From sequence record PQ471515.1: a DNA stretch of 64,000 bases; one strand, written 5' to 3'. A program made the translations under genes and the position numbers. The number at the start of each line of letters is the position of its first letter. Position 1 is the stretch's first letter. Origin of the DNA: Escherichia phage Turkey3. Positions 18,020-18,604 of this stretch are shown here, in pieces. Under the pieces are notes generated by a model. The model did no database searches. It was not told where the DNA came from and saw nothing but the letters and a program-made list of their open reading frames with translations.

Positions 18020-18604
18020 ATGCGTAATTATACTAAATTCATCCGTACCCTGTCAGAAATGGAAACTAACAAAGAGATCCTTTCAGCTTGTCGGTTAGCT
18101 GGACTGGAGATCATCGGGGCGGGATCTTCCCGTATAGTTTTCGCTTTAAATGATCGGTTAGTGATTAAGGTCGCCAATTGTGATGCGGGTGTAGAACAAA
18201 ATGAAACTGAATGTAAGGTATGGAATTTTTTAGACTATGACCGCCCTCAATTGAAACAGTACTTTGCTAAAGTGCATATGCATTTAAGCGATCCTGATAA
18301 TATGTTTATCGTTATGGATCGGTTGAGTACTGCAAGCAAAGGCAGTGTAAAGCACGTTAACGCGTGCAACGAATTAAAGTACAATATTAAACGTAATGCA
18401 ATTGAACGCCAGCACCGCTTTGCTGATGCACTACAACACGTTGATGATACACTGTCAACACTAACGATAAGAGATATCAGAAAACAGAATATCGGCCAGG
18501 ATCGCAACGGCCTTATTAAAGTACTTGATTACGGTTTAACCCGCAATATCTGGAATCAGTACTATAAAAAGCGGGATGTAAAAGCCGTAACTATAACACG
18601 ATAA
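18020..18604 (+). CDS. small protein-kinase-like protein
   Basis: Gly-rich loop IGAGSSRIVF, VIK lysine, catalytic-loop-like RDIRKQN, DYG ~20 aa downstream; RBS AAGGAG. Confidence 0.5.
   Translation: MRNYTKFIRTLSEMETNKEILSACRLAGLEIIGAGSSRIVFALNDRLVIKVANCDAGVEQNETECKVWNFLDYDRPQLKQYFAKVHMHLSDPDNMFIVMDRLSTASKGSVKHVNACNELKYNIKRNAIERQHRFADALQHVDDTLSTLTIRDIRKQNIGQDRNGLIKVLDYGLTRNIWNQYYKKRDVKAVTITR

Follow-up and report, generated by a model that had tools for sequence, protein, structure and literature searches.

A small, conserved gene of Escherichia phage Turkey3 predicted to encode a minimal protein-kinase-like protein

A stretch of 64,000 nucleotides from Escherichia phage Turkey3 (PQ471515.1), referred to here as the window, carries on its plus strand an open reading frame (ORF) at 18020-18604 that was marked, in an initial annotation made from the sequence, as a small protein-kinase-like early gene of about 195 residues. 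The frame encodes 194 residues and a stop codon. It is a real gene under selection, and its product belongs to a large phage family with a minimal kinase fold, predicted with high confidence, in which the catalytic residues are conserved. The balance of evidence tips modestly towards the product being a constitutively active minimal Ser/Thr (possibly also Tyr) protein kinase that is made early and acts on host proteins.

Kinase motifs and residue conservation

Conservation was counted in an alignment of 97 sequences reaching down to about 20% identity, of which 11 form the close subfamily of the Turkey3 protein. All of the motifs quoted in the initial annotation are present in the translation, namely IGAGSSRIVF at residues 32-41, VIK at 48-50, RDIRKQN at 151-157 and DYG at 170-172 (Table 1). 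Residues G35, S36, R38, K50, A52, G57, Q60, E64, D152, G159, D170 and G172 are invariant (97/97). This set contains every residue that binding of ATP and transfer of phosphate require: K50 as the beta-3 Lys, E64 as the helix-C Glu and presumed partner of K50, D152 as the catalytic Asp and D170 as the DFG Asp. The spacings are also those of canonical kinases, with 5 residues from D152 to N157 and 13 from N157 to D170, the latter as in PKA.

The family signature reads [GS]-x-G-S-S-R ... V-[LI]-K-x-A-x-N-x-x-G-x-x-Q-N-x-x-E in its N-terminal part and G-D-[LI]-[KR] ... G ... D-Y-G-[LF]-[TN]-x-x-V-[WY]-x-x-[YH]-Y in its C-terminal part. In the Gly-rich loop position 33 is G or S and S37 is kept in 94 of the 97 sequences; the loop is a variant of GxGxxG, since the third Gly is replaced by the invariant R38. 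N61 of the helix-C signature is found in 96 sequences and Y182 in 93. Position 171 of the DYG motif is Y in 82 sequences and F in 12, and is never P. R38 and the pair Q60-N61 are invariant or nearly so and are specific to this family.

The match to the catalytic loop is to be read with some caution, D152 being the sole universal residue of RDIRKQN. Position 151 is R in only one of the 97 sequences and Gly in 75, and K155 occurs in 8. N157 is present in 10 of the 11 close relatives versus 12 of the 97 family-wide, where S, H or T occur. The position two residues after the catalytic Asp (position 154) is basic in 60 of the 97. Such variation bears on an alternative in which the protein has the kinase fold and binds nucleotide but is not a conventional kinase: like a pseudokinase it could bind or inhibit a host protein, or it could perform chemistry of the AMPylation or glutamylation type, as some kinase-fold enzymes do. 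Loss of the catalytic-loop Asn in most of the wider family would suit this alternative, as would R38, Q60 and N61, which have no counterpart in canonical kinases, and the missing helix F and remainder of the C-lobe described below. Against these stand the retention of K50, E64, D152 and D170 in every member of a very divergent family, which is the pattern of an active enzyme, the retention of N157 in the protein's own subfamily, and the high activity of the phage T7 kinase gp0.7 (T7K) despite a similarly short domain (PMC13645617). A pseudokinase or a different chemistry is therefore considered unlikely.

Sequence profiles and predicted fold

The protein matches the Pfam model Pkinase (PF00069) with E=1.3e-3 and 18.6 bits, below the gathering threshold of 31.7 bits, and PK_Tyr_Ser-Thr with E=2.6e-3. 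These two are its top Pfam matches, and its relatives score lower or do not match. No match to the APH, choline-kinase, Kdo or RIO models of Pfam was obtained even at E<=10, and NCBIfam gave only a trivial 30-residue match to PknB. Weak matches among PDB sequences are nearly all to protein kinases, with IRDIRKQNI aligned to HRDIKPxNI and DYG to DFG. A profile of the 11 close homologs reached MAP2K4 and MAP2K7 with E of about 2e-4 over residues 29-181. Membership of PD-T4-6, a Ser/Thr-kinase defence protein, was considered and rejected, the weak PADLOC matches reflecting the shared kinase domain only.

An AlphaFold model built from a multiple sequence alignment of 11 sequences had a predicted local distance difference test score (pLDDT) of 49 and was discarded. 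With the 97-sequence alignment, AlphaFold 2 (AF2) gave a model with a pLDDT of 90.5 and a predicted template modelling score (pTM) of 0.88. In this model two N-terminal helices are followed by strands 30-34, 38-42 and 47-52, which hold the Gly-rich loop and K50, by the long helix 55-73 with E64, and by strand 96-100. Next come helices 109-117 and 130-145, the catalytic loop, strands 158-160 and 166-168 and the DYG motif. A single short helix, 175-182, lies beyond the motif, and the protein ends 22 residues after DYG, an end that is conserved family-wide. The modelled architecture corresponds to Hanks subdomains I-VII, lacking both the activation segment with its APE motif and helices F-I (subdomains VIII-XI).

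Foldseek searches of the PDB with this model returned the Lpg2603 kinase, APH(2''), MEK1, OSR1, Rio2 and PRPK. In the BFVD they returned the RaK2 ortholog with a template modelling (TM) score of 0.84, the PBECO4 ortholog, many other phage proteins of 130-250 residues, and T7-like phage kinases with E of about 1e-5 and TM of about 0.55. The kinase-like reading was thus borne out by structure prediction, the fold searches having given kinase folds and not a non-kinase fold, and the protein may be assigned with high confidence, on the strength of the model, to a minimal, bilobal protein-kinase-like (PKL) fold.

Chance resemblance of the motifs, or descent of the gene as a decaying fragment of a longer kinase gene, would account for single-sequence scores below threshold and for a protein that stops about 22 residues after DYG. 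The order and spacing of the motifs, which the initial annotation had taken as those of the kinase fold, nevertheless go beyond chance, given the dominance of kinases among the weak matches, the conserved catalytic positions and the kinase-fold matches of the model. The confident AF2 model and the terminator directly 3' of the gene likewise speak against this explanation, which is very improbable. A pseudogene or fragment was rejected on the conserved length, the conserved C-terminus and the ratios of nonsynonymous to synonymous substitution (dN/dS) given below.

Selection and distribution of the family

In pairwise comparisons of five Asteriusvirus orthologs dN/dS ranges from 0.04 to 0.18, and dS reaches 0.38. 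Orthologs with 92-99.5% protein identity are found in more than 30 Escherichia and Salmonella phages, and orthologs with 36-41% identity in RaK2-type Klebsiella and Salmonella phages, two Erwinia phages and one Xanthomonas jumbo phage. Both the length of the protein (about 190-225 residues) and its C-terminal end, D-Y-G-L-T-x-x-V-W-x-x-Y-Y, are kept across hundreds of homologs. The protein matches PHROG 4301, a phage family of unknown function, over residues 3-188 (E=4e-42, 145 bits).

When 1.84 billion cluster representatives were searched with a profile, 2,086 relatives passed E<=1e-3, of which 252 also passed E<=1e-10; stand-alone proteins of about 180-260 residues are frequent among them. 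The relatives listed are all without a precomputed Pfam domain, and none of the 13 relatives scanned has a significant Pfam match. The family is large, unnamed and uncharacterised, phage-restricted in the data seen, and distinct from T7K; no publication describing it, and no experimental data on any member, were found in the literature. One ortholog (P0004) is deposited as an E. coli protein, 'hypothetical protein QPL51_04540', on a 347 kb contig, which is of phage-genome size; the bacterial assembly has probably taken in the genome of a jumbo phage, a situation also remarked for G17 and Munch (PMC13645617). Four metagenomic relatives (P0021, P0022, P0028 and P0036) hold tandem mini-kinase units, with two to four complete copies (G-loop, VxK, GxxQN, DYG) in single polypeptides of 600-920 residues; in P0021 three copies lie about 235 residues apart.

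Gene neighbourhoods and non-protein substrates

The neighbourhoods of distant members differ. On contigs L008 (286 kb), L009 (306 kb) and L013 they adjoin RNA-repair or nucleotide genes, namely those for AAA_33/tRNA-ligase CPD, T4 RNA ligase 1, NUDIX, HD and PolyA_pol/CCA-adding enzyme. On contigs L010-L012 they adjoin capsid, baseplate or replication genes, so the association with RNA repair is not general. Across the contexts of eight relatives no recurrent partner gene or substrate was found, except for the synteny with a ParE-like gene within the RaK2/Asterius group.

These neighbourhoods are relevant to a second alternative, that of a kinase-fold phosphotransferase acting on something other than protein. 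Its substrate could be a nucleotide, the end of an RNA or DNA molecule, a sugar, a compound resembling an antibiotic or a component of the envelope, in the manner of APH, the choline and Kdo kinases and other atypical kinase-like enzymes. The fold neighbours APH and SAICAR synthetase, the G-D-L form of the catalytic loop and the RNA-repair genes beside a few distant lineages are in keeping with it. The Pfam evidence points the other way, with Pkinase and PK_Tyr_Ser-Thr on top and APH, choline kinase, Kdo and RIO absent, and the C-terminal helical substrate-binding subdomain of small-molecule kinases is missing. Position 154 is mostly basic, as in Ser/Thr kinases, and the neighbours in the window are small early ORFs, not RNA-repair genes. 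A non-protein substrate is accordingly held to be a minority possibility, though one to be kept in mind, beside the preferred reading of a kinase for proteins.

Probable transcription unit and terminal repeat

Table 1. Positions in the window of the kinase-like gene, its predicted motifs and the adjoining expression signals
Feature	Coordinates	Strand	Evidence or remark
Kinase-like coding sequence, 194 residues plus stop, 22.5 kDa, isoelectric point 9.4	18020..18604	+	PHROG 4301, dN/dS, AF2, kinase-fold matches
Gly-rich ATP-binding loop, G33-A-G35-S36-S37-R38, signature [GS]-x-G-S-S-R	18116..18133	+	Between predicted strands 30-34 and 38-42
K50, beta-3 'VAIK' lysine	18167..18169	+	97/97; in strand 47-52; aligned with kinase beta-3 in PDB matches
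Helix-C signature, G57-x-x-Q60-N61-x-x-E64	18188..18211	+	In predicted helix 55-73
Catalytic loop, D152-I-R-K-Q-N157	18473..18490	+	Aligned to HRDxKxxN of MAP2K4 and PknB-type kinases
D170-Y-G172, DFG-equivalent Mg-binding motif	18527..18535	+	Aligned to DFG
Ribosome-binding site, AAGGAGA, 7 nt 5' of ATG	18006..18012	+	Direct sequence reading
Sigma-70-type promoter-like site, TTGACA-17-TACTAT, 10/12	17689..17717	+	Nearest plus-strand promoter upstream of the kinase gene
Small ORF, 80 residues, matching no family, separated from the kinase gene by 31 nt	17746..17988	+	
Strong intrinsic terminator, 13-pair stem, TTCG loop, T-rich tail; end of unit	18615..18644	+	

The promoter-like site upstream of the gene probably drives a two-gene unit, 17746-18604, in which the 80-residue ORF is probably co-transcribed with the kinase gene; no terminator was found between this site and the kinase gene. 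The same ORF of 243 nt stands before the gene in 121Q, SD-2_S15 and Turkey5 as well.

The window is 94-97% identical by megablast to the Asteriusvirus jumbo coliphages G17, Sharanji, PBECO4, 121Q and phAPEC6. In fEgEco12 the ortholog is located at 16,161-16,745, within a direct terminal repeat of 20,993 bp that was confirmed by restriction mapping. Positions 1-4000 of the window correspond to 352,544-356,368 of fEgEco12, whose right repeat begins near 353,741, and the terminal repeat is therefore placed at roughly 1.2-22 kb of the window. In vB_Ec-M-J, Muenster and fENko-Kae01, too, the gene falls within terminal repeats that are annotated as such. A gene within the terminal repeat is present in two copies per packaged genome.

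Near-consensus sigma-70 promoters (at least 11/12) number 32 on the plus strand, that of the kinase gene, versus 5 on the minus strand. The first 21 kb, which approximate to the terminal repeat of related phages, hold 19 of the 32, and 15 sites among the near-consensus set of the window are perfect (TTGACA-N16-18-TATAAT). Because of the location in the terminal repeat, the strand bias of the promoters and the 10/12 site at 17689, early transcription by the host polymerase may reasonably be inferred, and the gene is, as read from these sequence features, a probable early gene. No transcriptome of this phage group, phAPEC6 and relatives included, was found in the literature.

A long direct terminal repeat and many small genes behind strong host-type promoters are also characteristic of phage T5. 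The pre-early genes in the terminal repeat of T5 are the first functions expressed and serve host takeover. This comparison is an analogy of context that implies no homology.

Neighbouring genes

An 84-residue ORF at 17162-17416 (plus strand), two ORFs from the kinase gene, encodes a protein that matches the ParE-like toxin domain PF24732 of Pfam above threshold (E=4.6e-11); no obvious antitoxin accompanies it. A ParE-like gene is directly upstream of a kinase relative of 52% identity (contig L005, 5745-5996), and on a RaK2-like contig (L007, 2351-2599) about 1.4 kb separates such a gene from the kinase gene downstream of it.

This linkage enters into a third alternative, in which an active protein kinase would be directed at phage proteins or co-encoded early factors, such as the phage sigma factor or the ParE-like protein, and would serve to time the phage programme and not to attack the host. 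The proximity of the ParE-like gene within the RaK2/Asterius group, the RpoD-like sigma factor that these phages encode for themselves, and the phosphorylation of phage proteins by T7K as well (PMC13645617) are compatible with it. The ParE-like linkage is, however, the synteny of one group, absent in distant members, and no functional link connects the two proteins. Phage proteins as the main targets are thought quite unlikely.

Two near-identical promoter repeats of about 65 nt are found on the plus strand at 17395-17480 and 17671-17756, with the form TTGACAGTACTCAAATGTTTTAGTACTAT...ACCAACACGGG..AAACAAAATG and promoters at 17413 and 17689. Each precedes a different small ORF (17470-17688 and 17746-17988), and the pairs resemble inserted promoter-plus-ORF cassettes that separate the ParE-like gene from the kinase gene. 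The hexamer AGTACT recurs at or just before the -10 element of several neighbouring promoters. About 4 kb upstream of the kinase gene, the annotation of fEgEco12 (contig L001, 1319-1996) lists a DksA-like zinc-finger protein and a GNAT acetyltransferase, whose equivalents would lie at roughly 13.3-14.0 kb of the window, a position derived by offset only. These two genes are candidates for further host-modifying early functions.

Proposed mode of action

Host RNA polymerase would transcribe the kinase gene from sigma-70-type promoters in the direct terminal repeat. As modelled, the protein runs from an extension of two N-terminal helices through an ordinary N-lobe for ATP binding, with the Gly-rich loop, K50 and E64, to helices D and E, then to the catalytic loop and DYG, and stops after a short final helix. 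With no activation segment or APE motif and no helices F-I, it would have neither an activation-loop switch nor the canonical platform for peptide docking. The kinase may thus be on once it is synthesised. Specificity may be broad, or may depend on partners or on surfaces outside the usual groove, because the substrate-docking lobe is missing. With ATP as donor, the kinase would phosphorylate Ser/Thr, and possibly Tyr, in host proteins and maybe also in proteins of the phage, as part of host takeover or of anti-defence. In this the protein may work beside a second, T7K-like kinase encoded elsewhere in the phage.

Prior annotation and significance

The prediction of a kinase is not new, having been preceded by GenBank, UniProt and the paper on phage Sharanji discussed below. 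GenBank names the ortholog 'serine/threonine-protein kinase' in Turkey5, 'PRP4' in fEgEco12 and 'protein kinase domain-containing protein' in ph0011, while those of Munch, SE_PL, Muenster and fENko-Kae01 are each a 'putative protein kinase'. The PBECO4 ortholog is already 'Protein kinase domain-containing protein' in UniProt (L7TKF0). What is added here is the high-confidence prediction of a minimal kinase fold with a complete catalytic set, the separation of the family from T7K, the location in the terminal repeat, and the presence of two distinct mini-kinases in these phages.

A bolder proposal sees in the protein and its relatives a phage family of more than 2,000 clusters (at 50% identity) that lacks a Pfam model and would have arisen independently of T7K. 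Its members would be constitutively active 'half-kinases' with the signature [GS]xGSSR, GxxQNxxE and DYG, no C-lobe beyond helix E and, in some cases, tandem copies in one polypeptide. Jumbo phages would deploy the protein early alongside an unrelated T7K homolog, either as a second hyperpromiscuous anti-defence kinase or on unconventional substrates such as nucleic-acid ends and nucleotides, at which the RNA-repair genes beside some distant members hint. Taken as a whole, this proposal is speculative and rather improbable. If the protein is active, it would be a second, independent case from which to learn how a kinase works without a C-lobe, and would bear on whether promiscuous phosphorylation is a general phage strategy. 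Recent work on T7K has shown phage kinases to be weapons of broad use against host defences (PMC13645617). The host-takeover enzymes of these phages are also of practical importance, given that the phages are under development as agents against pathogenic E. coli, Salmonella and Klebsiella.

Comparison with known kinases

Among Ser/Thr kinases (PF00069) the best PDB sequence matches are MAP2K4/MAP2K7 and PknB-type kinases. Their standard domain of about 260 residues includes APE and helices F-I, whereas the studied protein has 194 residues and lacks both. RIO, Bud32/PRPK and APH, to none of which the protein has a sequence-profile match, keep extra C-terminal helices or a substrate-binding subdomain, which are likewise missing here; neither the family profile nor the C-terminal helical subdomain that mark an APH-type enzyme was found in the protein.

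Two bacterial effector kinases of the minimal or atypical kind are also comparable. SteC of Salmonella (PDB 8jbi) is the best PDB sequence match of the broad family profile (E=0.004), a marginal and partial match that covers the N-terminal helix, the G-loop and V-x-K-I-x-x-N-E-x-G. Lpg2603 of Legionella (PDB 6vve) is the top Foldseek match in the PDB (E=1.3e-4), also marginal and partial. Both resemble the studied protein as very small kinase domains, used by pathogens against host proteins. OspG, NleH and HopBF1, which are minimal or atypical bacterial effector kinases, are absent from the top 50-60 structural matches. These effector kinases are secreted into eukaryotic cells and several depend on a host cofactor, whereas the studied protein shows no sign of either.

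The initial annotation had pointed to T7 gp0.7 as a precedent. Homology to it was rejected: BLASTP gave no alignment with T7K, and hhalign of the 97-sequence profile against T7K-family alignments gave E values of 0.14-0.24 with a probability below 1%, where the positive control, Sharanji gp144 against T7K, gave E=4e-8. Every one of the 120 T7K-family proteins listed, the jumbophage type (P0379) among them, has the domain PF27024.1 in its precomputed Pfam column, and none of the listed members of the studied family does. The DFG-like motif of T7K is DPV (PMC13645617), in place of which the studied protein has DYG, together with the GSSR and GxxQN motifs specific to its own family.

The paper on Sharanji (PMC11895373) lists two kinases: it describes WNN14432.1 as homologous to the T7 kinase and refers to WNN14351.1 as 'another protein kinase... 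function unknown'. The latter is the ortholog of the studied gene. The former, gp144, is a T7 gp0.7 homolog of 224 residues (OR545507.1, 66,182-66,856; contig L004, 21183-21857, minus strand) with DPL for DFG and with PF27024. Since gp144 matches T7K and PF27024 and the studied family does not, Asteriusvirus and RaK2-type phages carry two unrelated mini-kinases; no T7K-like ORF is detectable in the window itself. T7K homologs of jumbophages have been reported in G17 and Munch, their function being left open (PMC13645617), a statement that most likely refers to the gene of the gp144 type.

In general layout the two kinases are nonetheless alike. Each is encoded by a phage in an early region, a probable one for the studied gene, and each has helices N-terminal to a short kinase domain. 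That domain shows a G-loop, the lysine of V-I-K-V, a catalytic D-x-x-x-x-N and, 13 residues further on, a DFG-like Asp; about 20-25 residues beyond this Asp the protein ends. T7K is an early, hyperpromiscuous enzyme that targets the greater part of the host proteome for phosphorylation and puts several defence systems out of action (PMC13645617), and it is likely to be a functional analogy for the studied protein.
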